NCBI GenBank assembly: GCA_026015035.1
Contig: JAOZHB010000061.1
Location: 4,424-68,423 of the forward strand
DNA length: 64,000 nucleotides
Origin: Candidatus Bathyarchaeota archaeon
Lineage (GTDB): Archaea > Thermoproteota > Bathyarchaeia > RBG-16-48-13 > GCA-020355125
Direction: 5' to 3'
The notes under the pieces were generated by a model. It worked only from the letters and a program-made list of their open reading frames with translations, was not told the DNA's origin and ran no database searches. Positions within the stretch are counted from its first letter, which is position 1. Each line of letters starts with the position of its first letter. Both the position numbers and the translations under genes were made by a program. Shown here one piece after another: positions 1,168-61,067 of the stretch.

Positions 1168-1178
1168 AGCTAGCTAGC
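1168..1178. repeat. (AGCT)n palindromic tract AGCTAGCTAGC
   Basis: 11 nt in perfect AGCT register, in the divergent spacer about 50 nt upstream of the nth start. Confidence 0.9.
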
Positions 1179-1228
1179 AGAATCAACAAGAACCTCCATA
1201 TGGAATCTAACCCCTTCAAGGGAAATGT

Positions 1229-1915
1229 GTGCAGATGTGGCCAAAAGAGATTGATGAACGACGGAGAAGGATGGGGGAGATTATTCAGCGTCTAGAAAAG
1301 CGGTTTCCCAGCCGTCACCACCACCCCATCAGGGAGGCGTTTCCCCTCCTCATCGCAACCCTTCTCTCGCAAAACACCTCCGATAAAAACTCGTCCCGAG
1401 CCTTTCAAAAGCTTCGATCGCACTACGATGTAACGCCTCACGTCCTTGCCCACCTCCAGCCCAGTGACCTCAAACCCCACATTGAAGTCGCTGGCTTGTA
1501 CGAGATCCGGAGTAGACGCATAATCGCCCTATCAAAAACGGTTATCGAACGGTTTGGAGGGGACTTGGATGCGATTCTCCGACGCCCAACGGATGAGGCG
1601 AGGCAGGTACTCATGGGCTTGAAGGGGGTTGGACCCAAGACAGCGGACATCCTCCTCGCGTTCAGGGGTAACCGACCCATCATGCCGGTGGACACAAACA
1701 TCTTTCGGGTATCAGGGAGAATCGGCTTGGTCGCAGGAAGACATTATGAGCGAACGAGAGGGGCTTTGGAAGAGGTGATTCCAGAAAAGAAGTTGGGTGA
1801 AATGCATTTCACCCTCATCCAGCTCGGTCGGGATATCTGTAAACCGCGGCGACCTCTTTGTCCGCTCTGCCCCATCGCGAGTCTGTGTGCCTATCCCGAC
1901 AAAACACGAGAGTAG
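1229..1915 (+). CDS. nth: Endonuclease III (HhH-GPD DNA glycosylase/AP lyase)
   Basis: 228 aa with LLSQNTSD, helix-hairpin-helix LMGLKGVGPKTADILL, and a C-terminal 4Fe-4S loop CKPRRPLCPLCPIASLC (C-X6-C-X2-C-X5-C). Confidence 0.9.
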   Translation: MQMWPKEIDERRRRMGEIIQRLEKRFPSRHHHPIREAFPLLIATLLSQNTSDKNSSRAFQKLRSHYDVTPHVLAHLQPSDLKPHIEVAGLYEIRSRRIIALSKTVIERFGGDLDAILRRPTDEARQVLMGLKGVGPKTADILLAFRGNRPIMPVDTNIFRVSGRIGLVAGRHYERTRGALEEVIPEKKLGEMHFTLIQLGRDICKPRRPLCPLCPIASLCAYPDKTRE

Positions 1916-1996
1916 CCACCGGTCGTCCACATGTCGTCCCCTTCTACCTATCTCTCCACGAGTTACGTACAGTTTACGATGTCGTTCGTTGGGTTA

Positions 1997-2848
1997 CTAC
2001 TTGAAGACGTGGAGTTCCTCGTCGTAGCGGCGGTCAAGCATCTGGCTTGGCGGGAGCCGCTTGAACTGTTTTGTGGTGAGGTGCCGCGTGAAACGGGCGT
2101 TGAGGTGTTCCGGTCTCAGTGGGCTGTACAGCCATTCGAAGGACGCGTTTACGAAGAGGGGCCGTAATGGGATTACGTGGCGTGTGGCTTTGTAGCTGAA
2201 GACCTGTCCGCTCAAGGCTACATTGATAACTTCGTCCTTTGAGATCGTGGGCACCATGAGTAGGGAACACCCATCTTCCGAAGCAAGATGGCTGAGGGCA
2301 TCGCTTTCAGTCTCGTAGTGGATGGAGTAGCCTGCCGCACGAAGCGTATGTTCTATCTCCTGAATGGCGTCATAGATGCACTTGATATCGTCATGGGTCC
2401 CCCGGATTGCGAAACAGGTTGAATTAAATGCAAGGAACGCCGTCGCTTCGCGTTTTTCAACCAGACCACGGGCGTCCATTAAACACATCTCTTCGAGGTG
2501 GAATCCCAGGTCCTCGATGGCGCTAGTCATCCTTTCAATGTCCAATCGAGGAGTAACTACTCGATGCCAGCAGCCGATGACCACGTTGGGGTTGTTGTAG
2601 TCCACGAGGCAGATGGGGATGAAGCGACAGCCCAGCTCGCGGGCAGCAGCCAGCCTATGTGTTCCATCAAGCACAACACGGTTCTGCCGATCGACGATAA
2701 TCGGGTGTTTGAGACATTGATCCGAGGTCAGAGCTGTAACAAGTCTGTGGAGATGACTCTCCAAAATCTGCTCGTGAAAAAGCAAGGCGTCTACTTCTTC
2801 AAGGGTGATCTCAAGAGTGATGCGGGGATGAAGAATAGTGAACCCCAT
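1997..2848 (-). CDS. ParB/Srx-fold protein, candidate ADP-dependent L-serine kinase (SerK-like)
   Basis: 283 aa with LLFHEQ...HPIIVDRQNRVVLDGTHRLAAARELG (ParB/sulfiredoxin DGxHR core). It sits beside serS and a phosphoserine-pathway gene pair. The functional call is inference. Confidence 0.6.
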   Translation of the reverse strand: MGFTILHPRITLEITLEEVDALLFHEQILESHLHRLVTALTSDQCLKHPIIVDRQNRVVLDGTHRLAAARELGCRFIPICLVDYNNPNVVIGCWHRVVTPRLDIERMTSAIEDLGFHLEEMCLMDARGLVEKREATAFLAFNSTCFAIRGTHDDIKCIYDAIQEIEHTLRAAGYSIHYETESDALSHLASEDGCSLLMVPTISKDEVINVALSGQVFSYKATRHVIPLRPLFVNASFEWLYSPLRPEHLNARFTRHLTTKQFKRLPPSQMLDRRYDEELHVFK

Positions 2849-2943
2849 CTTAAACCCGGACCTTCAATGACGGTAACGCAGCTCTTGTCATGAGTACACG
2901 ACAGTGACGCTCACTACACCTTCTTGAGTGGCGGCATTTAAAT

Positions 2944-4221
2944 CTACGCTAACCGCGTGAGCCCCCCCATATAGGGCTGTAACGCAAGAGGGATGAGGAC
3001 GGACCCGTCTTTTTGCTGGTATTGTTCGAGAATCGCCACCAGGGTTCGGCTGGTCGCAATAGCCGTGTTGTTTATGGTGTGGACGAAGCCCGCTGGTGTC
3101 TGCCCCTCCTTCACCCGATACCGCACATTCAGTCGCCTCGCCTGATAATCCGTACAATTCGAGTTGGAGCCCGCCTCTCGGTATTCCCCATCCGCCATCC
3201 ACACCTCGATGTCATACTTCTTGGCGGCGATCGAGCCGATGTCGCCGGTACACACGTTGACGACTCGGAAGCAGAGGCCCAGGCTTCGGTAGAGCGCCTC
3301 AGAGTTATCCTCCAACTCCTCGTGAAAGGTCCACGAGTCCTCAGGCAGACAAAAGATGAATTGCTCCACTTTATTGAATTGATGTGTGCGGAAGAGTCCC
3401 CGCGTGTACTTGCCGTGGGCGCCGACCTCCTTGCGGAAATTGGTGCTGACGCCAACGAATTTTATGGGTAACTCACTTTGATTGATCACCTCATCCATGT
3501 AGAAGGCTGCCATGGGGTGTTCACTCGTCGCAATGAGGTACAGGTCTTCGTCCTCGATCTTGTACAATTGATCGCCGAAGAAGTCCAGATCGGTTACGCC
3601 GAGGTATGGTTTTCTCCGCATCATGTACGGTGGCTCTATCAGTAGGTACCCTCGCTCCATCAAAAAATCCATGGTATAGGTCAACAAGGCGTAGTCCAAC
3701 CGGGCTAGTCCCCCCTTCAGATAAACGAAGCCGTGGCCCGCGGTCTTCGCCCCTCGCTCCGTGTCAATCATATCCAAGTCCAACCCGATGGCCAGATGAT
3801 TTTTGGCCTCGAATTCAAAGGCCGGCGGTTCACCCACCACCTTCACCACCACATTGTCACGGTCATCCTCTCCAAAGGGAACGGACTCATGTAACAGATT
3901 GGGAAGGGTTAACAACGCGTCCCTCGTTTGGCCCGCGTATGCTGCCACCTCGCGTTCCAACCCTTCAATTTTTTCCGATAATGCCCGCACAAACTGGATC
4001 CGTGCCTCAGCTTCTTTCTTCTCCTTCTTCAGACGTGCAATTTCGGGTGTTAACACGTTTTTCTCGTGTCGGAACTCGTTTAATCTTGTCAGAGACTGTC
4101 GCCAGAGGGTATCGTGTTCCACCAACTCATCAAGCAGTTGGAGGTATCGAGGGTCCCTCCTCTTCTTCAAATTGTCTCGAACGAGTTCCGGATTCTCTCG
4201 AAGCAGTTTGATGTCAAGCAT
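2944..4221 (-). CDS. serS: Seryl-tRNA synthetase
   Basis: ORF 2944..4251. The canonical N-terminus MLDIKLLRENPELV begins at the internal ATG 4221. Class II motifs are FRKEVGAHGKYTRGLFRTHQF and GSNSNCTDYQARRLNVRY. Confidence 0.95.
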   Translation of the reverse strand: MLDIKLLRENPELVRDNLKKRRDPRYLQLLDELVEHDTLWRQSLTRLNEFRHEKNVLTPEIARLKKEKKEAEARIQFVRALSEKIEGLEREVAAYAGQTRDALLTLPNLLHESVPFGEDDRDNVVVKVVGEPPAFEFEAKNHLAIGLDLDMIDTERGAKTAGHGFVYLKGGLARLDYALLTYTMDFLMERGYLLIEPPYMMRRKPYLGVTDLDFFGDQLYKIEDEDLYLIATSEHPMAAFYMDEVINQSELPIKFVGVSTNFRKEVGAHGKYTRGLFRTHQFNKVEQFIFCLPEDSWTFHEELEDNSEALYRSLGLCFRVVNVCTGDIGSIAAKKYDIEVWMADGEYREAGSNSNCTDYQARRLNVRYRVKEGQTPAGFVHTINNTAIATSRTLVAILEQYQQKDGSVLIPLALQPYMGGLTRLA

Positions 4222-4443
4222 TGAAAATCCCTCGTCCCAACACTCAAACACTACAACGAGTATCTTTTCTTATAAACGTTCTAACGGGCGCCGTCGATGC
4301 CTCACATCGGACGAAGCGGTCATGGTAAGTCAGGTCGAAGGAAGGAGACCGATACGTTCTTGTTTCAGTAGCAACTGCTTTAACGTGGAGGTACTTTCCG
4401 AAAAAGGGGGTTGCCAGGGACTCCCGTTGAGGAGGCATATTTT

Positions 4444-5520
4444 TTGAAGTTGTTTACAGTTGGTCCTGTTGCCTGCTATCCCGAAGTCTTAGAGGAAATG
4501 GGGCGACAAATGTTCAGTCACCGAAGTGACGATTACAAACGACTGCATCGGGAAACTGTAGCCCTGCTACAACAGTTATTGGAGACAGAAAGTCAGGTCT
4601 TCCTGTTTTCCAGCACCGGCACAGGCTTTATGGAAGGCGCGGTCAGAAACTGCGTCGACGCCAAAATGCTGTGCTGCGTCAATGGAAGCTTCGGCAAGCG
4701 ATTCGCGGATGTAGCCGCGTCAAACGGAAAGACGGTGGAGATGCTTACCGCTCCACTCGGAGAACCCATCCATGCTGATCTCCTGGATGACCGGTTGTTG
4801 AGAAGTCGAGACGTCGACGCGGTCGCCATAACCCACAACGAAACCAGCATGGGCGTGATAAACCCGTTGCAGAAACTTGCCGATGTAGTGAAGAAGCATG
4901 GTAAGCTCCTGTTGGTTGACGCCGTCAGCTCCATGGGGGGCACCGAGATAAAGGTTGACCAGTGGGGACTGGATGTGTGTTTCGCGAGCTCCCAAAAATG
5001 CTTTGGCGTTCCCCCCGGGCTGGGTATGGGGAGCGTAAGTGAAGCGGCTTTGAAACGATCAGCAGCAGCCACCAACAAAGGTTGGTACTTTGACTTCACG
5101 CGGTGGGAACGCTATCAACGGATGGAGGGTACCCCCATGACCTCGGTGATACCCCAAATAGCCGGTCTACATCGAATTTTAACGTTGATCGAGGGCTGGG
5201 GTGGGAAGGAAAGGTACTTTGAGACGTACCGCGAGCGGAATAACAGAATCCGGGCAGGGATACAGGAGTCCGGGTTGACCTTATTCCCGAAGAAGGGGTA
5301 CGAAAGCCCAACCGTTACGTGTGTAAACGCGCCTCGAAGCGTGGATGGCATCGAGATCTACGAAAACATGCGGGATCGGGGATTTGAACTCGCCAAAGGC
5401 TACGGCGAAGTGCAACATAAGACCTTCAGAATCGGGAACATGGGCCACATCGAATTTGACGACATAGCCTTAATGCTGGCTGCCCTAGGCGCGAGCTTAG
5501 CTGAACTTGATAGGCCCTGA
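4444..5520 (+). CDS. Class V PLP aminotransferase (serine-glyoxylate / phosphoserine aminotransferase type)
   Basis: ORF 4411..5520 with PLP-lysine motif SSQKCFGVPPGLG. I prefer the TTG at 4444 (MKLFTVGPV..., about 9 nt after GAGGAGG); 4411 is the alternative start. Confidence 0.85.
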   Translation: MKLFTVGPVACYPEVLEEMGRQMFSHRSDDYKRLHRETVALLQQLLETESQVFLFSSTGTGFMEGAVRNCVDAKMLCCVNGSFGKRFADVAASNGKTVEMLTAPLGEPIHADLLDDRLLRSRDVDAVAITHNETSMGVINPLQKLADVVKKHGKLLLVDAVSSMGGTEIKVDQWGLDVCFASSQKCFGVPPGLGMGSVSEAALKRSAAATNKGWYFDFTRWERYQRMEGTPMTSVIPQIAGLHRILTLIEGWGGKERYFETYRERNNRIRAGIQESGLTLFPKKGYESPTVTCVNAPRSVDGIEIYENMRDRGFELAKGYGEVQHKTFRIGNMGHIEFDDIALMLAALGASLAELDRP

Positions 5521-5532
5521 GGAGGAGATGTT

Positions 5533-6462
5533 TTGAAACCGAAAATGAAGGCCCTCGTCTGCGACCCCATCCACCAAGATGGGATTGAACGCCTGAAGCT
5601 GGCGGGATTCACAGTCGACGTTAAACCCAGTATTTCAGACGAAGAATTGAAGAACCTCGTGTCCACCTACGACGTCCTCGTCGTGAGAAGCCGCACCAAG
5701 ATCACTGCAGAGGTGATTGGTAAAGGTCGACGCCTAAAGGCGGTTGGTCGGGCGGGCGTGGGATTAGAGAACATCGACGTCGACGCGGCGAAGAAGAGAA
5801 ACATCGCCGTGTTTAATTCTCCTGAAGCTCCCGCTGAAGCCGTAGCGGAATTAACGATCGGCCTGCTAATTTCCATAGTGCGGCGCCTTCCCTTCGCCGA
5901 CCGTACGATGAAGGAGGGGCAGTGGACGAAGAAGCAGTTAATGGGTTGGCAGCTGGAAGGCAAAACCCTGGGAATGCTGGGTCTGGGAAACATCGGGAAA
6001 AGGGTAGCCAAGATTGCTAAAGCTCTCGGAATGAAGATCCTGATCACCAAACGTACCCCCCCTGACCCAGAGCTCCTGTCTGAACTTGTGGGGGAGTATG
6101 TTCCTCTGAGGGAACTGCTCATGCGAAGCGACGTCGTTACAATACACGTTCCCTTAACCCATCAAACGCGACACATGATTGGAAGAGAAGAACTTGGCCT
6201 GATGAAGGACGGATCCTACATGATTAACACGGCGAGAGGGCCCGTTGTCGATGAAAAAGCCTTGGCGGACGCCCTTCGATCGGGAAAACTTGCGGGTGCC
6301 GCATTAGACGTGTATGCAGTTGAACCACCTCAAGATTTGGAGTTGGTCACACTGCGAAACGTTGTCTGTACACCCCACATTGGCGGGCAGACAGAGGAGA
6401 GCCAGCGGGGTGCCGCGACAATCATAGCGGATAAAATAATCGCTCATCTGAAGAAGGCCTAA
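5533..6462 (+). CDS. serA: D-3-phosphoglycerate dehydrogenase (short 2-hydroxyacid dehydrogenase form)
   Basis: 309 aa with NAD site GMLGLGNIGKRVAKIA, catalytic region TPHIGGQTEE, and GGAGGAG 5 nt before the TTG start (alternative ATG at 5545). Confidence 0.8.
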   Translation: MKPKMKALVCDPIHQDGIERLKLAGFTVDVKPSISDEELKNLVSTYDVLVVRSRTKITAEVIGKGRRLKAVGRAGVGLENIDVDAAKKRNIAVFNSPEAPAEAVAELTIGLLISIVRRLPFADRTMKEGQWTKKQLMGWQLEGKTLGMLGLGNIGKRVAKIAKALGMKILITKRTPPDPELLSELVGEYVPLRELLMRSDVVTIHVPLTHQTRHMIGREELGLMKDGSYMINTARGPVVDEKALADALRSGKLAGAALDVYAVEPPQDLELVTLRNVVCTPHIGGQTEESQRGAATIIADKIIAHLKKA

Positions 6463-6628
6463 CTGTTGAGAGGAAACGGTTAAGAGCGTTAATTCAGGCC
6501 CTTCTGAACCCGCGTATACTTAGAGACAGGCTGTAGACGATAACTAGTTAGGCAGAGACATCTGTTTGCCTCAGGTTTCCCTTCTCATGCTTGGGCGTAT
6601 GGCGATATGTTTCCTCATCGAACTGCAG

Positions 6629-6663
6629 TTTTTTTCGGGATGAAGAAACATCTCTTCGAAGAG
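6629..6663. terminator. T7 tract plus 12-nt perfect palindrome CTCTTCGAAGAG between convergent genes
   Basis: TTTTTTT at 6629-6635 and CTCTTCGAAGAG at 6652-6663 lie between the serA stop and the stop of the 6678 gene. T tracts are the usual archaeal termination signal. Confidence 0.25.
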
Positions 6664-6677
6664 GTTTCCTAAGTTAG

Positions 6678-7223
6678 TTACGTTGAATGTCCCTGCGTCA
6701 ACATCACGCGATGTCGGGTTAGATAGTCTTGGGGGTCGAAGGGGAACAGTCTGATGACCCTCAGTTTTTCGGGAAAGGAGATTTTGAGGAGGGGGTTGAG
6801 GAAGAGAACGCCCATCTCTCCGTCCTCTAAGGTTTGATCAACAATATCAACCACGTGTCTGCCGATCTCATCCACGCTCTCGTCATACATCTCTCGAACC
6901 ACTTGGCTTGGGGAGGTTCCTGCCATTTCTCGCCACGCTTCTGCCTCGGCAGCGTGGATGGGATTCACTGCCGCCTGTACCTTGACGCCTGTTGTAACTA
7001 GACCTGCAACTATCGTCGATGCTCCGACTTTAGATGCTTCTTCCTTGTGGGTGTCAGAATCTGTGTAGACCCAGCGGATCTTACTAGCTATGACCCTCAA
7101 TCGATCGGAAACGTACTTCCAAAACTCGTCACGCGTTGAATCGAAGTCGTCTGGAATCCTCATCACAAGCTTCTGGAACTCGTCCCGAGTGAACATCCTG
7201 GGAACATACACGAGGGTTTTCAC
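6678..7223 (-). CDS. Hypothetical protein
   Basis: 181-aa ORF with ordinary globular composition. It fills the gap between convergent and divergent neighbours. No motif recognised. Confidence 0.6.
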   Translation of the reverse strand: MKTLVYVPRMFTRDEFQKLVMRIPDDFDSTRDEFWKYVSDRLRVIASKIRWVYTDSDTHKEEASKVGASTIVAGLVTTGVKVQAAVNPIHAAEAEAWREMAGTSPSQVVREMYDESVDEIGRHVVDIVDQTLEDGEMGVLFLNPLLKISFPEKLRVIRLFPFDPQDYLTRHRVMLTQGHST

Positions 7224-7308
7224 GACATCACACCCTCACCGGATAGAGAGCGTCTCTTTACCGCCGGTTTTCAAAGGTCTTGCTGCGGCTGCTTATTGAA
7301 GCCCGTTC

Positions 7309-7701
7309 TTAGAGTTTAGACCCGCATTTAATGCAGAATTTGCTGCTGGACTCGTTTTGAAAGCCGCATCCAGAGCAGAGACCGGGTGTTGCGGATGGAG
7401 ATGGTGTTGTTGGAGGACTTGCTGGAGGGGATTCTTCCGGTGTTGGGGGCGGTGCAGGTGTTTCGAAAGTTTCAGCTGCCACCGCTAAGAGGATGACGTC
7501 TCCCACGACTTTGACGTTCTTGCTGTTCACCGTAATCTCTTTATCGGCCTCGGCTTTTATGATGAGAGAGAAATCTCTGGCTACCAAATCGAAGGACAGG
7601 TCCTTTACAGTGCCCATGTTCATGGCTTTGGAGTCAATAACCTGTTTGCCAATAATTTTTTCTCGGGTAAGATACTGTTTCTCCAAGGTAACCTCACGCA
7701 T
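7309..7701 (-). CDS. PRC-barrel domain protein with Pro-rich linker and C-terminal zinc ribbon
   Basis: ORF 7309..7782. The internal ATG 7701 (MREVTLEK...) avoids overlap with the RPA start. PRC-barrel pattern IIGKQVIDSKAMNMGTVKDLSFDL...VVGDVILL, linker TPAPPPTPEESPPASPPTTPSPSATPG, then CSGCG...CIKCGSKL. Confidence 0.7.
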   Translation of the reverse strand: MREVTLEKQYLTREKIIGKQVIDSKAMNMGTVKDLSFDLVARDFSLIIKAEADKEITVNSKNVKVVGDVILLAVAAETFETPAPPPTPEESPPASPPTTPSPSATPGLCSGCGFQNESSSKFCIKCGSKL

Positions 7702-7759
7702 ATTTAAGTGATGGCGAGTAGTATTTAATGTTTTATCGAATGGGACTGTTGAAAAGGAA

Positions 7760-9769
7760 ATGTTGAATCGCAAGGAAATCATTGAGAAAATTCTGGCGCT
7801 GAGGTCAGACCTGACCGCCGACGACCTTCAAAGGATTATTCGGACGAAGATTGAGGGGGCTGGCCGTCTGTTGACTGAGGAAGGTGCGACCTTCATGGTA
7901 GCCAACGAGTTCGGAATCGACCTGTCTAACGGTAATGTAGTGGGAACGGGGATGAAGGTCAAGGACCTCATCATCGGCGCCAACGACGCAACGATCGTCG
8001 GCGTCGTCAACGCGGTGTCCCCTCCCAAATCCTTTGTGAGGCGGGATGGCGTGGAGGGGCAGGTAGCCCGACTCGTGGTTTCAGACGACACGGGAAGCGT
8101 GAGAGTGGTTCTGTGGAACGAAAAGACGGACGTTATTAGTCAAGGCAAAGTTGCCACAAACCAGACGGTGAGAATCTCCCACGGTTACGTTCGAGCAGGA
8201 TTAACGGGTGACCCTGAGCTGAACGTCGGTCGTCGGGGCACCGTCGTCGTCTTATCCTCTGCCCCGGCTTTCGAACGGGAGACGCCCCAGAGCTCCTTGA
8301 AGAAGATCCGTGATCTAGCGGAGGGTGACTACTTCGTCAACTTCGTCGGCGTCGTAAAGGGACTGTCTCAAGTTTCGTCCTTCCGGAGAGCGAATGGCAT
8401 GGAGGGGCAGGTGATGCGGGTGCGTCTGGCTGACGCCACGGGTCGGGTGAGGGCGGTGCTCTGGGATGACCAAGTTGACTCCGTGAAGGAGACTCGGCGC
8501 GGTGACGTTTTGGAGATTGTGGGTGGACAGGTCAGGCGGGGTCTCGGCAACGTCTTGGAGGTGCATGTGGGGCGGCTTGGCCAAGTCAAACTTTTGAAGG
8601 ACTCCGAGCTGTCGGAGTATTCCTTACCGACGTTGACGAAAATCAGTGGTTTGAAACTTGGAATGAATGACGTTGATGTCCTGGGGCGGATTATGGACGT
8701 GGGTCAGATACGAGAGTTTGAACGGCGTTCCGGAGGTGTGGGGCGTGTGGGCAGCCTGTACGTGATGGATGAAACGGGCTCCACGAGGCTCACCCTTTGG
8801 GATGCCAAGGCTGACGTGTTAGATGAGGTATCTCCCGACGACGTGGTGTTGGTGGAGGGGGGGTACACCCGCGAGGGATTAGGCGGCGTCGTTGAGCTTA
8901 ACCTCGGAAGCATGGGCGTATTGACCGTCAATCCTGAGCGGGAGGAAGTACAGAGTCTCCCCCACTTTTCGTCCAATGCGATGGCCATCGGCGACTTAAA
9001 CGTGGGAATGAGAAGCATCACCGTTGAGGGAGACATCGTGGAAGACCCTGCCGTCAGGGACGTGACGACGCGTGACGGCGCAGAAATACGGGTGGCGTCC
9101 CTGCGAATACGCGATGAAAGTGGCGAAATCGGTGTTACCCTCTGGCGAGACCTTGCGGACAGGATTGACGGATTGGGGGCGGGAACTAGGCTTCGCATCA
9201 AGAACACTTACGTAAAGATGGGGTTCTTCGGAGACCTCGAATTGTCCTCAGGGAGGACGACCGAGCTCGAGTTGTTAAGTGAGAGCGAAGGGACACCCGA
9301 GAGAGGAGGTCCCCTCATCAACGATTTAGCGACAGAGAAGATTCAGGCGGTGCAAGTGGAGGAGAGCACTGAAGTACAGGGAAGAATCATGGAGGTAAAC
9401 GCGAATTCTAAGGTGTACCCTTCGTGCCCAAACTGCATGAAGAGGGTTCGAGAAGAGGAAAGGGGATGGATGTGCGAAAGCTGTGGCGAAATACCGCAGC
9501 AGGTGCCCCGTCTGATCGTTGAAGTCATCGTGGAGGACGACTCGGGAAGCATAAATAGCGTGTTCAGCGGGGCCGTAGCTGAGAAGCTTCTTAACATGAG
9601 CAGCGATACTGCTTGGAACCTTGCTCTTCAAGCAGGAAGCGAGGTCGCACCCGTTGATGACGCACGCGACCGAATCGTCGGAGCCAATGTGCAGCTTACA
9701 GGACGAGTTGTAAGAAGCCGCAGAGACGGCAACTTACGTCTGCACGTGGAACAACTTACCGTACTATAG
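7760..9769 (+). CDS. Replication protein A-like ssDNA-binding protein (4 tandem OB folds plus Zn-ribbon OB)
   Basis: 669 aa. Four internal repeats each carry the pattern D(D/E)TGS(V/T)R..LW. The C-terminal OB holds CPNCMKRV...CESCG. Confidence 0.85.
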   Translation: MLNRKEIIEKILALRSDLTADDLQRIIRTKIEGAGRLLTEEGATFMVANEFGIDLSNGNVVGTGMKVKDLIIGANDATIVGVVNAVSPPKSFVRRDGVEGQVARLVVSDDTGSVRVVLWNEKTDVISQGKVATNQTVRISHGYVRAGLTGDPELNVGRRGTVVVLSSAPAFERETPQSSLKKIRDLAEGDYFVNFVGVVKGLSQVSSFRRANGMEGQVMRVRLADATGRVRAVLWDDQVDSVKETRRGDVLEIVGGQVRRGLGNVLEVHVGRLGQVKLLKDSELSEYSLPTLTKISGLKLGMNDVDVLGRIMDVGQIREFERRSGGVGRVGSLYVMDETGSTRLTLWDAKADVLDEVSPDDVVLVEGGYTREGLGGVVELNLGSMGVLTVNPEREEVQSLPHFSSNAMAIGDLNVGMRSITVEGDIVEDPAVRDVTTRDGAEIRVASLRIRDESGEIGVTLWRDLADRIDGLGAGTRLRIKNTYVKMGFFGDLELSSGRTTELELLSESEGTPERGGPLINDLATEKIQAVQVEESTEVQGRIMEVNANSKVYPSCPNCMKRVREEERGWMCESCGEIPQQVPRLIVEVIVEDDSGSINSVFSGAVAEKLLNMSSDTAWNLALQAGSEVAPVDDARDRIVGANVQLTGRVVRSRRDGNLRLHVEQLTVL

Positions 9770-9825
9770 ACCTTCCGCTAACTAGCGACTTTTTCCTAGA
9801 GAGAGTAGATAATTAAAATGTGACG

Positions 9826-9834
9826 AGCTAGCTA
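9826..9834. repeat. (AGCT)n tract AGCTAGCTA
   Basis: 9 nt in register, in the convergent spacer between the RPA stop (9769) and the 9862 gene stop. Confidence 0.85.
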
Positions 9835-9861
9835 ATACCGTGTACTCTCTGCGATTCGTAA

Positions 9862-11004: not shown

Positions 11005-11228
11005 CCTGCACCAAAGCTGCTACAGAGTCCTCTGTTGTAGAGGTAGATGAGTCAAAAATAAAAATATGGTGGCTTCAAGGAGAACTCTCCTTTAAAGCCT
11101 TTAGCAGGACAGGGGGTGTCGCTTGACGCTTTCAGTCTTTGAGTAGCGTAGGCTGTCAACCTGGAATCCCAAGCGTCACTGAGGCTCCCGATTCCTTTGA
11201 GGGGAACCTCCTCTCTCAACACGTTTCG

Positions 11229-12176: not shown

Positions 12177-12177
12177 T

Positions 12178-13398: not shown

Positions 13399-13405
13399 TT
13401 CTCTT

Positions 13406-13687
13406 TCACTCCTTCATCATCGCTATTGCGTCGAATGGGCACTCCTTCTCACAGATGCCGCAGCCTTTGCAGTAGTCATACTTTATGGATATTTTCTCGC
13501 CGTCCCAGAGGATGGCGGCGTCGGGACAGAAGATCCAGCAGAAAAGGCATTCTTTACACTTCTCGTTGTCAACAACCGGCTTCACCTCACCTCGCCAATC
13601 ACCTGTTTTCAATTCTTCGGAGGGCTTCCAACTCACCCCACCCATGGGGATGTCCTTCCAACCCGGCTTTGCATTCGGACTACTCAT
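13406..13687 (-). CDS. porD: 2-oxoacid:ferredoxin oxidoreductase delta subunit (2x[4Fe-4S] ferredoxin)
   Basis: 93 aa with two CxxCxxCxxxCP motifs: CKECLFCWIFCP and CKGCGICEKECP. Confidence 0.9.
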   Translation of the reverse strand: MSSPNAKPGWKDIPMGGVSWKPSEELKTGDWRGEVKPVVDNEKCKECLFCWIFCPDAAILWDGEKISIKYDYCKGCGICEKECPFDAIAMMKE

Positions 13688-16145: not shown

Positions 16146-16254
16146 GAAGCGTTTCCCTCAATTCGTCGATGACCATGTGTTTTTTAAGGTAAAATGTGGG
16201 ATGGCCCCTTATTCGATTTGTATACGAAGGTTAACTTCTCAAATAAAAACGTGT

Positions 16255-19120: not shown

Positions 19121-19132
19121 AGCTAGCTAGCT
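19121..19132. repeat. (AGCT)3 perfect 12-mer AGCTAGCTAGCT
   Basis: Lies 63 nt past the flippase stop. Flanks GAAAGCTAGCTAGCTCC resemble the sites at 19616 and 25177. Confidence 0.95.
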
Positions 19133-19527: not shown

Positions 19528-19535
19528 CTAGCTAG
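19528..19535. repeat. CTAGCTAG tract
   Basis: 8 nt in register, in non-coding sequence between the two 12-mers. Confidence 0.7.
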
Positions 19536-19615: not shown

Positions 19616-19627
19616 AGCTAGCTAGCT
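19616..19627. repeat. (AGCT)3 perfect 12-mer AGCTAGCTAGCT
   Basis: Context is GAAGCTAGCTAGCTCC, between the two zinc-ribbon micro-genes. Confidence 0.95.
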
Positions 19628-19907
19628 CCTGAAGAGAGATAGAACGCTTTCAATCATCGATCAACATTCACTGAGACATCGTCGCATGAATAAGCAGGGC
19701 TAATCATAACGATAATTGGGCTCCCTTGACATGAAGGTGTGCTCAGCTTCGTCGCTTGATCCCGAACGGATTCTCCACTGCTAGCTGGCTTTTTCAGCAA
19801 AGAGGTGGCTGGAAAGGAAGTTGTAACGAAGAAAACAATGTGAGAAAGTTTAACAGTGTCTTCTGGGGGTAGTAGAAACGATATCGTCAGGATGAGGGGG
19901 AAGATCA

Positions 19908-20183: not shown

Positions 20184-20194
20184 TAGCTAGCTAG
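20184..20194. repeat. (AGCT)n tract TAGCTAGCTAG
   Basis: 11 nt in register, in the convergent spacer between the stops at 20090 (+) and 20215 (-). Confidence 0.9.
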
Positions 20195-20639: not shown

Positions 20640-20648
20640 CTAGCTAGC
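20640..20648. repeat. CTAGCTAGC tract
   Basis: 9 nt in register, in the divergent spacer between the starts at 20562 (-) and 20762 (+). Confidence 0.85.
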
Positions 20649-23914: not shown

Positions 23915-23923
23915 AGCTAGCTA
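23915..23923. repeat. (AGCT)n tract AGCTAGCTA
   Basis: 9 nt in register, 19 nt upstream of the larA-like start codon. Confidence 0.85.
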
Positions 23924-25176: not shown

Positions 25177-25188
25177 AGCTAGCTAGCT
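25177..25188. repeat. (AGCT)3 perfect 12-mer AGCTAGCTAGCT
   Basis: Context is GCGAAGCTAGCTAGCTCT, in the 450-nt spacer between 24879 and 25329. Confidence 0.95.
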
Positions 25189-28045: not shown

Positions 28046-28047
28046 GT

Positions 28048-38765: not shown

Positions 38766-38773
38766 GCTAGCTA
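38766..38773. repeat. GCTAGCTA tract flanked by ACGTCACG direct repeats
   Basis: ACGTCACGTCGTCTG-GCTAGCTA-CGTCACGGACG, in non-coding sequence. Confidence 0.7.
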
Positions 38774-40520: not shown

Positions 40521-40545
40521 GCTAGCGGGCTAGCTAACTCTAGCT
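40521..40545. repeat. Cluster GCTAGC-GG-GCTAGCTA-ACTC-TAGCT
   Basis: Three AGCT-register fragments within 25 nt, in the convergent spacer between the stops at 40434 (+) and 40713 (-). Confidence 0.75.
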
Positions 40546-43754: not shown

Positions 43755-43764
43755 TAGCTAGCTA
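43755..43764. repeat. (AGCT)n tract TAGCTAGCTA within 12-nt palindrome TTAGCTAGCTAA
   Basis: 10 nt in register, in the hcp-PAC2 spacer. Confidence 0.85.
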
Positions 43765-44976: not shown

Positions 44977-46440
44977 TTGATTAGCTTGCTTGAGGTGGCT
45001 GACAGGGCGTACACGGGCCCGAAGGCAAGTGAAAAGGCGTGGAATTTGATGCTGTTCCGGAAGATACGGGAGCTCATCGAGAGGTTTCAGCTGGGTTACT
45101 CGGGTTCTGATAGGTACTTTAATGTGGATGACGAGGAGGTCGATCGCTTCTTCGAGGCGGGTGTGGCGCTTCTATCCGAATTGGGTGTTTACTGCTTCAC
45201 GACGAACCGGGTCATTCACTTCAATGTTGATGAGGTGCTCACGGCTGTCAGGTCGGCGTTTGAGGAACTCGTTGTTGGGGAGGGCGTGGATCGACGGGTG
45301 ATACGGAAGAGGCGGTTGGAAGACACGAAGTTGGTTAACTTCCATATGGGTGGTCACTGTCCTTGGCCTCAAGAGAAGGCATCCACCATCATGGCGGCCT
45401 TCGCCAGCGTACGGAGGAACGATTACATCGAGGGCTTCAATCTGACCGCTATCGATGGCTATGAGCTTCGAGGTGACGCCTTCGCCGCGTACGCCAGTCG
45501 GAGGACGATCGAGATCATGCGGGAGGCGGTTGGGAGGGGAGGTCGACCAGGGATGGCCATCGCTCTGTATCCCATCCTGACGCGGGCAGGATGCATGCTG
45601 GCTCCCCTCGACCCTGCAAACGCCTTGCGGAGGAGCGATGGTGTACTCCTCTCCACCCAGAGGGATCTGAAGGTAGAGGACAACTTCATACAGACCGCGA
45701 TCATCCTTGAGCGGTACGGAAGCTTCAGGCTGAATGGAGGGACTTCCTCCGTCATCGGTGGATTCTGCGGGCCTACAGAAGGGGCGATGCTCGAAACCAT
45801 CGCTAAGCACTTGGTAGGTTGGATCTGCTATCGGGACCACTTTTCCTATGGGCCTAACGTCCAAACTCAAGCCGAGCTTTTATCTGGGAGGAACCCCCTT
45901 TTACGAGTCAAGAAGGAGGATCTCCCTCCCAACTGGGTCACCTACGTCATCGCTCGAGCAATCCAGAGGAACACCAATCTCATTGTTTTTGGCGCTGGCT
46001 TCCGCGGAGAGCCGGGCGTTGGAGGATCGGGGAGTGTTACGAGCTTGCTTTCCTTGGCGAGGAATATCGTCGCAACCACGGTCTTGGGAAGCAACGTAAG
46101 TGGCGGCTTCACGCCGTACCACGGGGAATGGCTGGTTCAGGTCTCGGATGCCACGGTCAAGGCACGGGTCAAAGGAGAAGAGGTCAAGGGGATTATGGAG
46201 AGGATCGACAACGTCATTCAGGAGAAACGACTTGAGGAGCCCATGTCCACCAACCGGGCTTTCGTCGGCGACCGTCGAATGATGGCTTACAGAATGGACT
46301 TCGACGAGTACATGAAACCCCTGACGGCCCTCTATGACTTCGAGAGACAGAAGCCAAAAGACTCCCTAGTGCAGAACATGGGAGAAGCAAGCAGCATACT
46401 CGCCGACTTGGGCATCGATGTAGAAACCGCAGCGAGCTAG
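44977..46440 (+). CDS. Monomethylamine methyltransferase MtmB homolog lacking pyrrolysine
   Basis: 487 aa. DRAYTGPKASEKAWNLM...FFEAGVALLSELGVYCFTTNRVIHFNVDEV...ELVVGEGVDRRVIRKRR...GGRPGMAIALYP...IGGFCGPTEGAMLETIAKHL is collinear with the Methanosarcina MtmB blocks recalled from memory. There is no in-frame TAG. Confidence 0.75.
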   Translation: MISLLEVADRAYTGPKASEKAWNLMLFRKIRELIERFQLGYSGSDRYFNVDDEEVDRFFEAGVALLSELGVYCFTTNRVIHFNVDEVLTAVRSAFEELVVGEGVDRRVIRKRRLEDTKLVNFHMGGHCPWPQEKASTIMAAFASVRRNDYIEGFNLTAIDGYELRGDAFAAYASRRTIEIMREAVGRGGRPGMAIALYPILTRAGCMLAPLDPANALRRSDGVLLSTQRDLKVEDNFIQTAIILERYGSFRLNGGTSSVIGGFCGPTEGAMLETIAKHLVGWICYRDHFSYGPNVQTQAELLSGRNPLLRVKKEDLPPNWVTYVIARAIQRNTNLIVFGAGFRGEPGVGGSGSVTSLLSLARNIVATTVLGSNVSGGFTPYHGEWLVQVSDATVKARVKGEEVKGIMERIDNVIQEKRLEEPMSTNRAFVGDRRMMAYRMDFDEYMKPLTALYDFERQKPKDSLVQNMGEASSILADLGIDVETAAS

Positions 46441-46580
46441 CCTTCCATTGGGTTACTCGGGACCTCACAAAATCATGGGTTCCGTTTCCTTCTTTCAGGC
46501 AGGTACGCTGTCTCCGTTGTGGTCATCGGAATGAATCTTTTTATCTTCCTTCATTCCCTTATCTACTTCAGAGCGTCGAG

Positions 46581-53274: not shown

Positions 53275-53290
53275 GTAGCTAGATAGCTAC
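53275..53290. repeat. Degenerate AGCT-register palindrome GTAGCTAGATAGCTAC
   Basis: One central mismatch from a perfect 16-nt palindrome, 45 nt after the 53230 stop. Confidence 0.6.
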
Positions 53291-56958: not shown

Positions 56959-56967
56959 TAGCTAGCT
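56959..56967. repeat. (AGCT)n tract TAGCTAGCT overlapping the proC stop codon
   Basis: 9 nt in register. The minus-strand TAG stop of proC (56962-56964) lies inside it. Confidence 0.85.
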
Positions 56968-57813: not shown

Positions 57814-58004
57814 ATGTGACCTCGATTTCGATTAGATAGTATGTGTGAAAACCGAATATATGAATGTGTCTTTACGCGTGGATAGATACCTAGGTTGGTT
57901 TTCTGACGTAGAGAACTGTATCTTGTGTGTTTCGTTGTTTAAGCCTTAACATTGCCTAAACTTTTCGATTCGTTTAGGCAACCACCTAGGTAGCTAGATC
58001 GTAG

Positions 58005-59303: not shown

Positions 59304-59614
59304 GTGAGCATCCGAGGAGCGCGCGTGCTAAACGCAGAGTGGTGCAACTCTCGTCATGACTTTGACCTACCTCTCGTCACTAACACGCAGATCGTTGAGA
59401 AGGGTGGGAAAGGTTCGGTGGTCTACGCCCTCATACATGGTATTAACTATGGGGGGTGTTTGCAGTGGCAGTGCTTGATTACCATGGTGTTAGTAAACTG
59501 GTTGTGAAGGCCATCATCCAGAATTACGATGGCGCAATCAAACTTATAACTGAGCAAATAAGAGCTATCCAGCTGGCTGAGTGTCGCGGGGATATCGTAC
59601 CCTCCGTGGTGTAA
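59304..59614 (+). pseudogene. Possible frameshifted small gene split at a G6 run
   Basis: ORF 59304..59507 (...VVYALIHGINYGG) and a second frame from 59456 (VFAVAVLDYHGVSKLVVKAIIQNYDGAIKLITEQIRAIQLAECRGDIVPSVV, stop 59612-59614) would fuse if the G6 run at 59451-59456 were G7. Confidence 0.25.
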
Positions 59615-59672
59615 GTATCACGAGGGTGAAGCGAGTTTTGGGGGCTTGTTGAGGATTTACTGTTCACATGGG

Positions 59673-59682
59673 AGCTAGCTAG
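59673..59682. repeat. (AGCT)n tract AGCTAGCTAG
   Basis: 10 nt in register, about 90 nt upstream of the 59775 gene. Confidence 0.9.
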
Positions 59683-59774
59683 TAGCCTTATAGAGTGAAA
59701 CGCTAGATTTCTCTCATGATTTACGATACTCACAATTCATAAATAAATTACCATCAGACATAGCGTTGAGGTGA

Positions 59775-60281
59775 ATGTATGTTAAAAAAGCTTTTCACGG
59801 TGTCCTTCCCACGCTAATGGTTCTTGCAATAGTCTCTATATCCTTTAGTGTTCTTGGCGTTCAGGGCTTACTTAATTCGGAAACAGAAGTATCGGGAAGC
59901 ATTCTTTCACCCGTGTGGGCGACAGAGCTGCCAACAATAGAGAAGGAAGTGGGTCAATATGTACACTTTAAAGCCACGATCAAAAACACTGGTAATGTTG
60001 AAACGACGTATTGCATCGTTGCGAAGTGGAGTGAACACGGGGTTGAGGAAAGGGAGACAGCTGGCCTTGCAGATGCACGATTGAGTCCGGGTCAATCAGA
60101 GACGTTAGCCATAGGTTCTGTTGAATGCATGGAAGCGATGATGGGTAAATACTTTGACGTGAAATTCATTCTTTACCAGTGGGACACAGAGATAGTACTG
60201 GAAGAAAAGGTGATTGTTGAGGCCTTCTACGTTAAAGAGGTAGTAGTAAGCGGAGATATAACAGGTTACTGGGTAGAATAA
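59775..60281 (+). CDS. Secreted/anchored protein with CARDB-like beta-sandwich
   Basis: 168 aa with an N-terminal signal/anchor LPTLMVLAIVSISFSVLGV. VHFKATIKNTGNVETTYCIVAKW resembles the CARDB pattern. Confidence 0.55.
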   Translation: MYVKKAFHGVLPTLMVLAIVSISFSVLGVQGLLNSETEVSGSILSPVWATELPTIEKEVGQYVHFKATIKNTGNVETTYCIVAKWSEHGVEERETAGLADARLSPGQSETLAIGSVECMEAMMGKYFDVKFILYQWDTEIVLEEKVIVEAFYVKEVVVSGDITGYWVE

Positions 60282-60446
60282 CAATAAGAATATCCTCTCC
60301 TCCTCTTTTTTCTTTTGAGGCTTAATCAAGAATTTGTTAGCTTACAACTACCTGTTGACACTAGTTCATTCTCATATTTTATCTCTATTTTTATTGAGAA
60401 GGCCTAGTTTATTTTTGAATTAGAATGAATTAGTATTTCGAACGCG

Positions 60447-60458
60447 TAGCTAGCTAGC
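60447..60458. repeat. (AGCT)n 12-mer TAGCTAGCTAGC overlapping a stop codon
   Basis: The minus-strand TAG stop of the 60454 gene lies inside the tract. Confidence 0.95.
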
Positions 60459-61041
60459 AATTCAAGTCCGCTTTCCGTGAAGGAATTCCGATCCATCTTG
60501 GGATTCTGTTCATGTATTCTTGGTATGCTTTGCCATACTTCTCAAGGCATTCGCGTTCTTCGTGAAGTACTACGCGGTGCCACAGAACTATTTCCGTAAT
60601 CGCTAGCAACATATACATCCACGAGACGCAGGCTAAGCCAGTACCGATGCCTTTCAAGAACTCACCAATATACATGGGATTTCTAGACACGCGATAGATA
60701 CCCGTGGTAACAGGTTTATCCACTGGGGTAACCGCAAAAGTGCGTAATGCAGTAATCTCTATCAATATACCGACAACGTAAAGGAGTAACCCCATATAGA
60801 ACCATAATGTGCATGGTTTCAGGGGTAAGAATATACTATAAACGTATGAAACTATGAAGGTTAAGGTCAGAATTCGAGTAAGAGGCTTTCCGTTTTTCTC
60901 ACTTCTGGGCGTCTTACTCAGTATATTTCTTCTTCGAAGGATCTTACTGCCAACAGGCCAGAAGAAAAATTCGGGAAGGTTAAGAATCCACGCATTCCAC
61001 AACCCTAACTCAAAAGCCGTTACAAAGGACATGCCTTTCAC
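60454..61041 (-). CDS. Isoprenylcysteine carboxyl methyltransferase / phospholipid methyltransferase family membrane protein
   Basis: 195 aa with 4-5 TM helices and the signature TTGIYRVSRNPMYIGEF...HEERECLEKYGKAYQEYMNRIPRWI. Confidence 0.8.
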   Translation of the reverse strand: MKGMSFVTAFELGLWNAWILNLPEFFFWPVGSKILRRRNILSKTPRSEKNGKPLTRILTLTFIVSYVYSIFLPLKPCTLWFYMGLLLYVVGILIEITALRTFAVTPVDKPVTTGIYRVSRNPMYIGEFLKGIGTGLACVSWMYMLLAITEIVLWHRVVLHEERECLEKYGKAYQEYMNRIPRWIGIPSRKADLNC

Positions 61042-61056
61042 ATAGTTTATTTCAGT

Positions 61057-61067
61057 CTAGCTAGCTA
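61057..61067. repeat. (AGCT)n tract CTAGCTAGCTA
   Basis: 11 nt in register, in the 67-nt divergent spacer between the starts at 61041 (-) and 61109 (+). Confidence 0.9.

Follow-up and report, generated by a model that had tools for sequence, protein, structure and literature searches.

The 64,000-nucleotide (nt) stretch of contig JAOZHB010000061.1 from a Candidatus Bathyarchaeota archaeon, referred to here as the window, is a housekeeping segment of chromosome whose closest public records are Candidatus Bathyarchaeia metagenome-assembled genomes. It has a GC content of 50% and about 83% of it lies inside long open reading frames (ORFs), the gene calls being longest-ORF approximations. Several genes serve replication and repair (MCM, GINS, RPA, Hel308-type and Lhr helicases, a eukaryotic-type topoisomerase IB and a family-Y polymerase), and others encode SerRS, pyruvate:ferredoxin oxidoreductase (POR), aldehyde:ferredoxin oxidoreductase, hybrid-cluster protein and a non-pyrrolysine MtmB homologue. 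Domain scans identified no transposase, integrase, restriction-modification system, methyltransferase or HUH/RAYT protein among the window genes, and tRNA and Rfam scans of the window returned no match. The subject of this study is a set of short runs of the self-complementary tetranucleotide AGCT that are scattered through the spacers between these genes. From a comparison of the one window with about 30 related metagenome contigs (cited by their L numbers), the runs are a natural, lineage-specific family of very short AGCT tandem repeats (8-12 nt long in the window, with a maximum of 14 nt in relatives) rather than conserved regulatory sites.

A tract was defined as a run of at least 8 nt in the AGCT register. 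The window holds 16 of them, comprising four 12-mers, three 11-mers, two 10-mers, four 9-mers and three 8-mers, all at the coordinates recorded in the initial annotation, which also located the four 12-mers and the degenerate copies correctly. They are given below, together with the degenerate copies at 19780, 46435, 53275 and 57991.

1168..1178, AGCTAGCTAGC, 11 nt, in the divergent spacer ahead of an EndoIII/HhH-GPD gene, at a distance of 50 nt
9826..9834, AGCTAGCTA, 9 nt, in a convergent spacer that separates the RPA gene from a gene of 380 amino acids (aa)
19121..19132, AGCTAGCTAGCT, 12 nt, in a convergent spacer
19528..19535, CTAGCTAG, 8 nt, a window-specific CTAG duplication (+4 nt)
19616..19627, AGCTAGCTAGCT, 12 nt, 26 nt past the stop of a 95-aa ORF
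19780..19786, GCTAGCT, 7 nt, degenerate copy within a doubtful 95-aa ORF
20184..20194, TAGCTAGCTAG, 11 nt, 20 nt past the stop of the DUF2153 gene
20640..20648, CTAGCTAGC, 9 nt, beside a TATA-like box upstream of the DUF2153 gene
23915..23923, AGCTAGCTA, 9 nt, 18 nt upstream of the start of the LarA-like gene
25177..25188, AGCTAGCTAGCT, 12 nt, in a tandem spacer
38766..38773, GCTAGCTA, 8 nt, inside a 239-nt segment (about 38605-38844) that is replaced in relatives
40529..40536, GCTAGCTA, 8 nt, with GCTAGCGG directly before it
43755..43764, TAGCTAGCTA, 10 nt, 115 nt upstream of the PAC2 gene
46435..46441, AGCTAGC, 7 nt, degenerate copy holding the TAG stop (46438-46440) of the MtmB-like gene
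53275..53290, GTAGCTAGATAGCTAC, degenerate copy, in register with one C-to-A deviation
56959..56967, TAGCTAGCT, 9 nt, supplying the TAG stop (56962-56964) of the proC-like gene, minus strand
57991..57997, TAGCTAG, 7 nt, degenerate copy 7 nt past the stop of the lactonase gene
59673..59682, AGCTAGCTAG, 10 nt, 92 nt upstream of the 168-aa gene
60447..60458, TAGCTAGCTAGC, 12 nt, supplying the TAG stop (60454-60456) of the ICMT/PEMT-like gene, minus strand
61057..61067, CTAGCTAGCTA, 11 nt, immediately upstream of the sulfatase gene's TATA-like box, where a deletion or replacement has its junction

Nine additional 7-mers are present in the window, five of them within long ORFs. The initial annotation had found three of the five (28458, 40360 and 46779) and overlooked the two at 7084 and 29568. 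A flank said to be common to three of the 12-mers is exact for two of them (GAAGCTAGCTAGCTC, at 19616 and 25177), whereas the third reads GAAAGCT...; the part common to all three is AAGCTAGCTAGCTC. The flanks of the 16 window tracts are mutually unrelated, 48 non-redundant tracts yielded neither a flank consensus nor an A/T peak at constant distance, and a repeat finder run on the window returned tract-based families only (e.g. D2) and no other dispersed repeats. With no relation between the flanks of different copies, nothing beyond the tract itself belongs to the element. That it forms part of a longer repeat is ruled out by the unrelated flanks, the absent consensus and the repeat finder result.

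The top 8-mer of the window is AGCTAGCT. Measured against a first-order Markov background, the noncoding DNA of the window contains 14 runs of at least 8 nt where 0.34 are expected, and its 53 kb of coding DNA contains none where 1.02 are expected; the two remaining tracts straddle a stop codon. The claim that full sites lie outside the confident genes therefore stands, with 14 noncoding and two overlapping a stop codon. The over-representation is roughly 40-fold and has a sharp lower limit. Runs of 4-6 nt match expectation in both coding and noncoding DNA and a surplus appears only from 7-8 nt up, giving a bimodal spectrum of run lengths with a separate population at 8-12 nt. Because the short runs are at expectation, the tracts are a discrete class and not the tail of a compositional bias. 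The initial annotation had noted that CTAG is usually avoided in prokaryotic genomes, which is not seen here, as the observed/expected ratios are 0.93 for CTAG and 1.00 for AGCT and neither tetramer is avoided or enriched. A simple tetramer bias is ruled out by these ratios and by the 4-6-nt runs.

The excess is also specific to one repeat unit. Across the remaining 32 tetranucleotide unit classes combined, runs of 10 nt or more number 13, and no such run reaches 12 nt. Of the self-complementary units, six in all, AGCT alone is enriched and AATT, ACGT, TCGA, TGCA and CCGG occur at chance, which rules out a general hairpin-slippage of self-complementary repeats. The (AATT)n repeat, the other all-frame stop, occurs once versus 1.0 expected, which speaks against selection for all-frame stops.

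A spacer of the form CTAGCTAGCTAG has been used to join contigs with stops in six frames (PMC3082526), and since this synthetic spacer exists, a real artefact test was needed. Several window tracts also lie where relatives carry extra sequence. However, the window tracts come in five lengths and four registers, and at most sites their flanks are colinear with relatives. Logan contig L020, which is 99.9% identical over 7 kb and aligns without gaps, has all five tracts of that span. In JGI (L092-L096) and Logan contigs at 90-94% nt identity, the tracts at 19121, 19616 (both 12-mers) and 23915 (a 9-mer) recur; the JGI contigs L194-L202 carry those at 40529 and 43755, and Logan contig L209 those at 59673 and 60447. 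The relatives' own tracts are seen in raw megahit (ENA, L100) and JGI contigs. The suggestion in the initial annotation of a non-biological linker or assembly join is refuted by the varied lengths and registers and by the recurrence of the same tracts, or strain variants of them, in independent assemblies of other samples; the latter covers at least 11 of the 16 sites, those at 1168, 9826, 25177, 56959 and 61057 being known from the window assembly alone. The tracts are natural, and a join made by people or software is exceedingly improbable as their source.

With respect to the surrounding genes, tract density is 1.5/kb in divergent spacers, 2.6/kb in convergent spacers and 1.9/kb in tandem spacers. 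This similarity agrees with the earlier view that the tracts are not simply promoters or terminators. Tracts lie 15 to 926 nt from start codons, with a slight depletion within 30 nt of starts, and RNA folds of six tracts with their flanks were no more stable than shuffles (z from -0.7 to +2.1). The distance and spacer-type statistics and the RNA folds weigh against a promoter or terminator, and a structured RNA or intrinsic terminator finds no support in the folds and the empty tRNA and Rfam scans.

A related proposal holds that the tract is an operator, boundary or promoter-proximal site, where a dimeric protein (e.g. of ribbon-helix-helix or winged-helix type) is predicted to control the neighbouring genes. 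The tract is a perfect palindrome, as such a site might be; the tracts at 19528, 20640, 25177 and 61057 abut TATA-like A/T boxes; and the small transcription units between 19.1 and 20.65 kb are bracketed by tracts. Nevertheless, there is no fixed distance to the start codon, the tracts being mildly depleted next to it, and they are densest in convergent spacers, where promoters are not expected. They lack a flank consensus, they are not kept at the orthologous spacers of relatives at 83-88% nt identity, and they occur at about one per 4 kb beside unrelated housekeeping genes, in some cases overlapping stop codons. Since the tracts also diverge like neutral spacer, as described below, an operator or boundary element is unsupported by position or conservation and is considered improbable. 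The 19100-22600 region itself is unusual in having a lower GC content (42-47%), small ORFs of 81-118 aa of which DUF2153 alone is recognisable, and five of the 16 tracts; its small units have a tract after each stop and another beside a TATA-like box.

The tracts coincide with stop codons more often than under random placement. Five of 26 tracts (19% versus 6%) abut or overlap a stop codon, and at least ten genes of the clade end at a tract TAG. In the window these are the proC-like, ICMT/PEMT-like and MtmB-like genes, as the initial annotation had reported and the coordinates confirm. In relatives they include the genes for CMD, DUF362 and Yip1 (L099), QueC and desulfoferrodoxin Dfx (L089), and an amidohydrolase and an FGGY kinase (L203). 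At 56959 the tract replaces 14 unrelated nt of L089, and the window proC-like gene ends two codons earlier than its counterpart there. At the MtmB stop, L202 has the 11-mer AGCTAGCTAGC through one synonymous change, GCG-to-GCT. The MtmB-family gene (44977-46440) is without an in-frame TAG and is thus a non-pyrrolysine homologue, and TAG is an ordinary stop that ends 14 of the 56 window genes; a pyrrolysine link to TAG is ruled out on these two grounds. Members of the MtmB cluster are 481, 484 or 487 aa long, and as the 484-aa copy of L202 has the same stop as the window gene, at least that difference lies in the start call.

The initial annotation had noted that the palindrome supplies TAG on both strands. 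This is so, with each window tract presenting TAG in three to five of the six frames, but not in all six, since only the CTAGCTAGCTAG register at 12 nt or more blocks every frame. From these properties it could be argued that the tracts are selected as multi-frame stop insulators, ending stray translation from either direction and making recombinant junctions safe. The genes that stop in a tract would fit, as would the long tracts that follow stop codons at module boundaries in phages (see below), and the same sequence has been used by people for this purpose (PMC3082526). Selection of this kind is nonetheless very improbable. The (AATT)n repeat would do the same job via TAA and is unenriched, none of the window tracts blocks all six frames, there is nothing to terminate in divergent promoter spacers, positions are unconserved, and the benefit is too weak to be plausible as a primary cause.

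Comparison with relatives revealed three kinds of change, namely steps of 4 nt in either direction, same-length clusters of 2-5 substitutions, and tracts at junctions, with the direction of many of these strain differences being unpolarised. A clean step is seen at 19528, where CTAG is extended to CTAGCTAG in the window only; five strains have a single copy (CTAG in L092, L093 and L097, TAG in L094 and L095) and the outgroup L021 has none. At 20184 the L092 group has TAGCTTGC, which is 4 nt and two substitutions apart from the window tract. Two more 4-nt steps separate the window from its relatives at about 37905 (AGCTAACT versus AGCTAGCTAGCT) and about 38035 (AGCTAGTTAGG versus TAGCTAGG), and two 2-nt changes were observed besides. 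The 148-aa ORF at 37691-38137 is probably no gene, with 4-nt indels between close strains, no Pfam match and no entry in the protein collection. Without it, 37691-38980 is an unusually long (~1.3 kb) noncoding stretch with several tract and tract-remnant sites.

The substitution clusters are confined to the tract, and the flanks are 90-95% identical. At about 22480 the window has CAGTTAACCAAG and L092 has CTAGCTAGCTAG; at 25177 the window has AAGCTAGCTAGCT and the L092 group has GTAGTTAGGCAGCT of the same length; and at 9826 the tract is CTGGATAGCTA in L103 (93% nt identity), again with length unchanged. Relatives have AGCTAGCT for AGCCAACT at about 59120 and AGCTAGCTAG for AGCTGTCTAG at about 62700, and at about 60335 L209 has a tract where the window has non-tract sequence. 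Smaller differences were found at other sites. The 20640 tract is one substitution off in seven relatives (CTAGATAGC), the 60447 tract is a 10-mer in L209 via one substitution (GGCTAGCTAGC), and the 43755 tract is unchanged in L202 (97.7% nt identity) and a 9-mer in L194 (TAGCTAGCT). The 7-mer at 19780 is GCTAACT in the L092 group and GAGCTAGCT, beside an 80-nt indel, in L021, and that at 57991 is TAGCTG in L089 (a 1-nt indel). Among strains that are 99% identical, a 12-mer decays stepwise from TAGCTAGCTAGC to TAGCTACCTAGC to TAGTTACCTAGC. Several differences are of the AGCT-to-AGTT type, and a signature of 5-methylcytosine deamination was considered; it was dropped as evidence after 21 deviations from perfect 14-mers were tallied (C-to-A 8, C-to-T 4, others 9) with no clear excess of C-to-T.

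The third kind of change concerns junctions. The largest indel of each pairwise comparison sits at a tract: 178 nt at 25177 (missing in the L092 group and ending 3 nt left of the tract), 133 nt at 53279 (133-139 nt extra in L089, exactly within the degenerate 53275 tract) and ~370 nt at 19121. A further large indel of ~190 nt is found at 61057, where two independent relatives, L203 and L209, continue past CAGTCT with TAAAACTT... (~190 nt in L203) and the window has only its tract. Homology to relatives at 83-88% identity starts or stops at a tract edge at 46441 (L001, in which the gene upstream differs), at 19123 and 20185 (L021, which has the ~370 nt in place of the 19121 tract and resumes homology at the 20184 tract) and at 61068 (L099, as for all of L099-L102). 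The segment at 38605-38844 is swapped between strains with a tract of its own in each allele, L194-L201 having an unrelated 113 nt that ends in the 11-mer CTAGCTAGCTA directly before homology resumes. L101, which is 99% identical to L099, is wholly different left of a 14-mer. The spacer at 9826 has ~2.9 kb extra in L022, and L021 has CAGCTAAC and a shorter spacer at 19616. By a rough hand estimate, tracts with 3 nt on either side make up about 2-3% of the noncoding DNA, yet coincide with about half of some ten independent breakpoints; on those rough figures, chance would fall far short of explaining the clustering.

Some rearrangements do not involve tracts. None lies at the ends of the Lhr gene indel relative to L022, in which the Lhr-type helicase gene (977 aa, 29437-32370) is missing and its two neighbours are 35 nt apart, and none lies at the ends of the segment whose deletion in L203-L208 affects the 168-aa and ICMT genes. 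That segment (~59.4-60.8 kb; 59400-60820) is missing from L203-type strains, in which the 168-aa gene is gone and the ICMT/PEMT-like gene is reduced to ~240 nt of its 5' part; given this remnant, the loss is a recent deletion polymorphism. Logan contig L209 keeps the window arrangement, including an unchanged 59673 tract.

Since the initial annotation had also offered target-site duplication by a mobile element, the steps and junctions need to be considered in that light. Tracts would be the footprints of cut-and-paste insertion sequences (IS) or miniature inverted-repeat transposable elements (MITEs), with a 4-bp CTAG/AGCT target duplication or repeat-bearing ends leaving one unit per insertion and excision, and with element-mediated deletions giving the junctions. 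The 19528 duplication, the three other 4-nt steps, and the tracts at deletion and rearrangement junctions, which are the parts of the proposal that held up, are what such a history might leave. Variable-length palindromic fillers also recall the excision footprints of eukaryotic transposons. On the other hand, the window and ~250 kb of relatives yielded neither a transposase nor an IS or MITE, and the window has no other repeated element. The indel segments adjoining tracts are single-copy. Among about 30 related loci none shows a filled site, even though the empty site and the supposed footprint are both seen at 19528. The density of 1.6/kb in L099 would demand enormous numbers of excisions, and same-length substitutions and the in-gene tracts of phages are left unexplained. 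An origin in mobile elements is accordingly a poor prospect.

Individual tracts are without detectable purifying selection and diverge like neutral spacer. The proportion of differing columns in tracts versus other noncoding DNA is 27% versus 21% (window/L092), 3.4% versus 2.8% (L099/L100) and 1.8% versus 0.9% (L092/L094), none of these differences being significant. None of the tracts is shared in position at 83-88% nt identity, and about a third are shared at 90-94%. The 19121 tract is unchanged in L020 and L092-L097, the 19616 tract is unchanged in the L092 group, and the tracts at 23915 and 40529 are kept in L092-L096 and L194-L201, respectively. Conservation is bimodal, with three tracts perfectly kept and others altered at many positions, which suggests multi-nucleotide events and not gradual drift. 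Since no purifying selection is detectable, the large excess must be fed by continuing biased creation.

Tract density is lineage-specific. Tracts are missing from most of the roughly 60 loci compared from other Bathyarchaeia, from Nitrososphaerota and from further archaea. The window has 16 tracts in 64 kb (0.25/kb), L089 has four in 13.5 kb and L092 five in 15.5 kb (~0.3/kb each), and L090 and L091 have none in 23 kb. The highest density is in L099-L102 (~1.6/kb), with L099 having 18 runs of at least 8 nt in 11.2 kb, tracts of up to 14 nt, and as many as four within one 420-nt spacer.

A parallel case was identified in marine phages. A scan of IMG/VR for AGCTAGCTAGCTAG gave few matches overall, and one clade of marine tailed phages stood out (L147, L165, L167, L160; L183, L129, L140, L176, L190, L192, L186; with L147 spanning 1-14249 and L183 spanning 1-10349). 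These phages have a GC content of 0.44-0.47 and encode a terminase, a DnaB-like helicase and an exonuclease/Erf/endonuclease VII module. Their tracts reach 18 nt at a density of 1-1.7/kb, and AGCTAGCT is again the top 8-mer. The nearest sequenced relative, Phage C75C1 (OQ984151; terminase 70% identity), has no tract of 8 nt or more. The phage tracts are mostly within genes and are built via synonymous codons, so that Q-L-A is encoded as CAG CTA GCT, whereas C75C1 uses CAA TTA GCT or CAG TTA GCA. Tracts can thus be built by substitution under a pressure that acts on the DNA sequence itself. Long phage tracts lie directly after stop codons and before a CAATACC linker, and a module swap between phages of 95-98% identity starts 8 nt past a tract. 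Tracts thus coincide with recombination boundaries in a second, unrelated system.

In L183 (7120-8200, compared with L129, L190 and L192), a stop codon, a tract and CAATACC form reusable linkers at gene boundaries. The linker continues with a ACCAACCAACCAAAT(A/C)AATACCATG leader ahead of start codons, and modules are swapped or deleted between such linkers in phages of 95-98% identity. Within OQ984151.1 (L193), the 16131-22830 region contains a DNA methyltransferase, a gamma-glutamyl cyclotransferase and an amidoligase near replication genes, which recalls DNA hypermodification clusters; the methyltransferase sits between the exonuclease and EndoVII genes. A methyltransferase link to the phage tracts was rejected, as it is the tract-free C75C1 that has one and the tract-rich L147 is without it at the same place. 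Other viral contigs contain dense local clusters of CTAG-based palindromes (L126 6313-6811, L180 5512-5996, L184 6-379). L126 has seven tracts of 8-16 nt within 500 nt, and L180 and L184 have TACTAGTA and CTAGCTAG arrays. These clusters look iteron- or origin-type and do not resemble a dispersed family.

The chief rival explanation is modelled on the HIP1 palindromes of cyanobacteria. In such a system, abundance would be maintained by selection on density or spacing (for example with the tract as a site bound or marked by a nucleoid, repair, defence or methylation system) or by methylation-linked biased mismatch repair, while positions turn over. Precedents exist for methyltransferase-linked repair (PMC4390886) and for selection and nucleoid structure (PMC5861425). 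The ~40-fold excess of a short, lineage-limited palindrome, the origin of tracts by same-length substitution clusters, the in-gene 8-10-mers that phages build by synonymous codons, and the very high density in the L099 spacer are all of the kind expected. The difficulties are that positions are not conserved above neutral spacer and that no tract is present in 53 kb of coding DNA although each tract leaves one to three frames open. Neither the tetramers nor the 5-6-nt runs are enriched, so the gradient of near-sites expected of a substitution drive is missing. The window is without a methyltransferase, as is tract-rich L147 with respect to the one found in C75C1, and tracts at deletion junctions are not explained by the model alone. 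A HIP1-like system is a serious contender, albeit a doubtful one.

With an artefact excluded, and with operators, promoters, terminators and transposon footprints poorly supported, a sequence-specific process at the level of the DNA is left as the source of the tracts. The reading favoured here, at a rough probability of 45%, is that the tracts are a driven, fast-turnover palindromic simple repeat that is made and remodelled by sequence-specific break-repair or short-homology recombination. Breaks would recur within or beside AGCT/CTAG runs and be mended by fill-in, by rejoining out of register or by short templated repair, and recombination may use the tract as a portable microhomology. Candidate agents are a nuclease or type II topoisomerase with 4-nt staggered cuts; alternatively, a deaminase or repair pathway may act on AGCT, or microhomology-templated repair may operate between tract copies. 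The 4-nt steps would be out-of-register rejoining or the fill-in of a 4-nt stagger. In-gene copies would be purged by selection, and the restriction to noncoding DNA probably follows largely from this, as a tract places TAG in three to five frames, 4-nt steps shift the frame, and several residues are replaced. Copies in the last few codons may survive, with the tract then supplying the stop codon, so that stop overlaps would be clipped gene ends rescued by TAG. The high steady-state density would in turn need continuous biased creation, or drive. Break-repair is favoured because it unites the junctions, the 4-nt steps and the stop-codon overlaps.

Several points weigh against it. Domain scans of the window gave no suitable enzyme, mobile element or methyltransferase. 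The same-length clusters of 2-5 substitutions (~22480, 25177, 9826, ~59120, 60335 and 62700) are hard to obtain by cut-and-fill and look more like conversion or fixation bias, and the codon-built tracts of phages favour selection or biased repair acting on the sequence itself; together these better fit templated short-patch conversion between copies, or a HIP1-type fixation bias. Tracts of 10 and 11 nt are as common as those of 8 and 12, so growth is not simply by whole units from 4-mers. The tracts at 19121, 19616 and 23915 are perfectly conserved at ~92% nt identity, which is mildly above the neutral expectation. Some tract-edge breaks, such as that at 61068, could instead reflect the edge of promoter constraint, and every comparison rests on metagenome contigs and one 64-kb window.

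Comparison to known systems helps to place the tracts. Like HIP1 and the alternate palindromes of cyanobacteria (GCGATCGC; PMC4390886, PMC5861425), they are short perfect palindromes in tens-fold excess and limited to a lineage, have no gene-level regulatory role and a debated function, and can be created by substitution, in genes only in the phage clade here. An over-representation of at least 15-fold, as expected of a highly iterated palindrome, is found in the 64 kb of the window. However, HIP1 is a fixed octamer that is abundant in ORFs and conserved beyond neutral expectation (PMC5861425), and neither the conservation nor the abundance in ORFs is seen here. The AGCT tracts are tandem, variable in length and register, absent from archaeal coding DNA, and associated with 4-nt steps and with indel and rearrangement junctions. 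A cognate orphan DNA methyltransferase has been proposed for HIP1 (PMC4390886), and none is among the window genes.

The exact 4-nt duplications, such as CTAGCTAG at 19528, and the rearrangements resemble the signature of a trapped type II topoisomerase with fill-in of a 4-nt stagger (bioRxiv 10.1101/2020.05.03.075358; PMC8795545), although the latter depends on end joining and is not strongly sequence-specific. In immunoglobulin switch regions, repeated palindromic AGCT is likewise a site of two-strand damage, breaks, junctions and local mutation, with overlapping AID hotspots on both strands giving breaks and recombination (PMC5389528, PMC4245955). Switch regions are vertebrate and are driven by a deaminase and transcription, whereas tract deviations here are without a clear C-to-T excess. 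The synthetic CTAGCTAGCTAG spacer is of the same sequence family, with TAG on both strands and use at joins (PMC3082526), but the tracts are natural, variable, strain-polymorphic and present in raw assemblies.

Two groups of bacterial repeats were also compared. The tracts share with contingency microsatellites a head-to-tail tetranucleotide structure and the gain or loss of whole units between close strains. They differ in having 2-3.5 units at hundreds of dispersed noncoding sites, a single unit type, substitution clusters and an association with deletions. Bacterial contingency loci are long tetranucleotide arrays, often of more than 10 units, such as (CAAT)n and (AGTC)n in Haemophilus, and are found at a few phase-variable genes. 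Microsatellite slippage would also be general to other units, and AGCT alone is enriched. Repetitive extragenic palindromic (REP) elements are imperfect hairpins of 20-40 nt with a dedicated RAYT transposase. REP elements, bacterial interspersed mosaic elements (BIMEs) and the boundary linkers of mosaic phages coincide with recombination boundaries, the first two being extragenic palindromes as well. Unlike REP and BIME, the AGCT tracts have no conserved flank, hairpin stability or associated gene, and the window is without a HUH/RAYT domain. The staggered-cut signature, switch regions and phage linkers would be similar to the tracts in how they work, by analogy and not by shared membership.

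Two further observations concern window genes. The topoisomerase IB gene adjoins the gene of the family-Y (DinB/Dpo4-like) polymerase (14601-17370), and the pair is kept in every close relative fetched. L103, a JGI contig with 93% identity, has indels of 64-129 nt inside the SerRS, aminotransferase, RPA and POR genes (window 3538, 4483, 7979 and 11870), none of them tract-related; its SerRS gene is called in two pieces, suggesting pseudogenes or assembly errors in that contig.

No description of natural (AGCT)n enrichment was found in the literature on archaea, phages or genomes, and there is a modest chance that a new mechanism underlies the tracts. In a more speculative extension of break-repair, rated unlikely, certain archaea and phages may possess an activity dedicated to writing or copying (AGCT)n at broken ends, or to cutting there, which would make the tract a portable, self-complementary, multi-frame-stop linker. 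If true, transcription units could be deleted, swapped or inserted at linkers without read-through fusions; gene cassettes would have a new way of being shuffled, and the synthetic stop-linker would have its counterpart in nature. At a practical level, the natural tracts mimic the CTAGCTAGCTAG contig spacer, so pipelines could confuse the two.

Palindromes of the HIP1 type have gone unexplained for about 30 years, and the AGCT tracts are a second, independent case, archaeal and, convergently, in a phage clade. They add features beyond those of HIP1, namely a tandem structure, 4-nt steps, fast turnover and exact coincidence with deletion and gene-order junctions, and with these, comparative and population genomics can put the process to a direct test. 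Should a specific activity of break-repair or recombination prove responsible, it would be a new source of genome plasticity in the Bathyarchaeia, which are among the most abundant archaea of sediments, and could provide a practical marker of recombination junctions.

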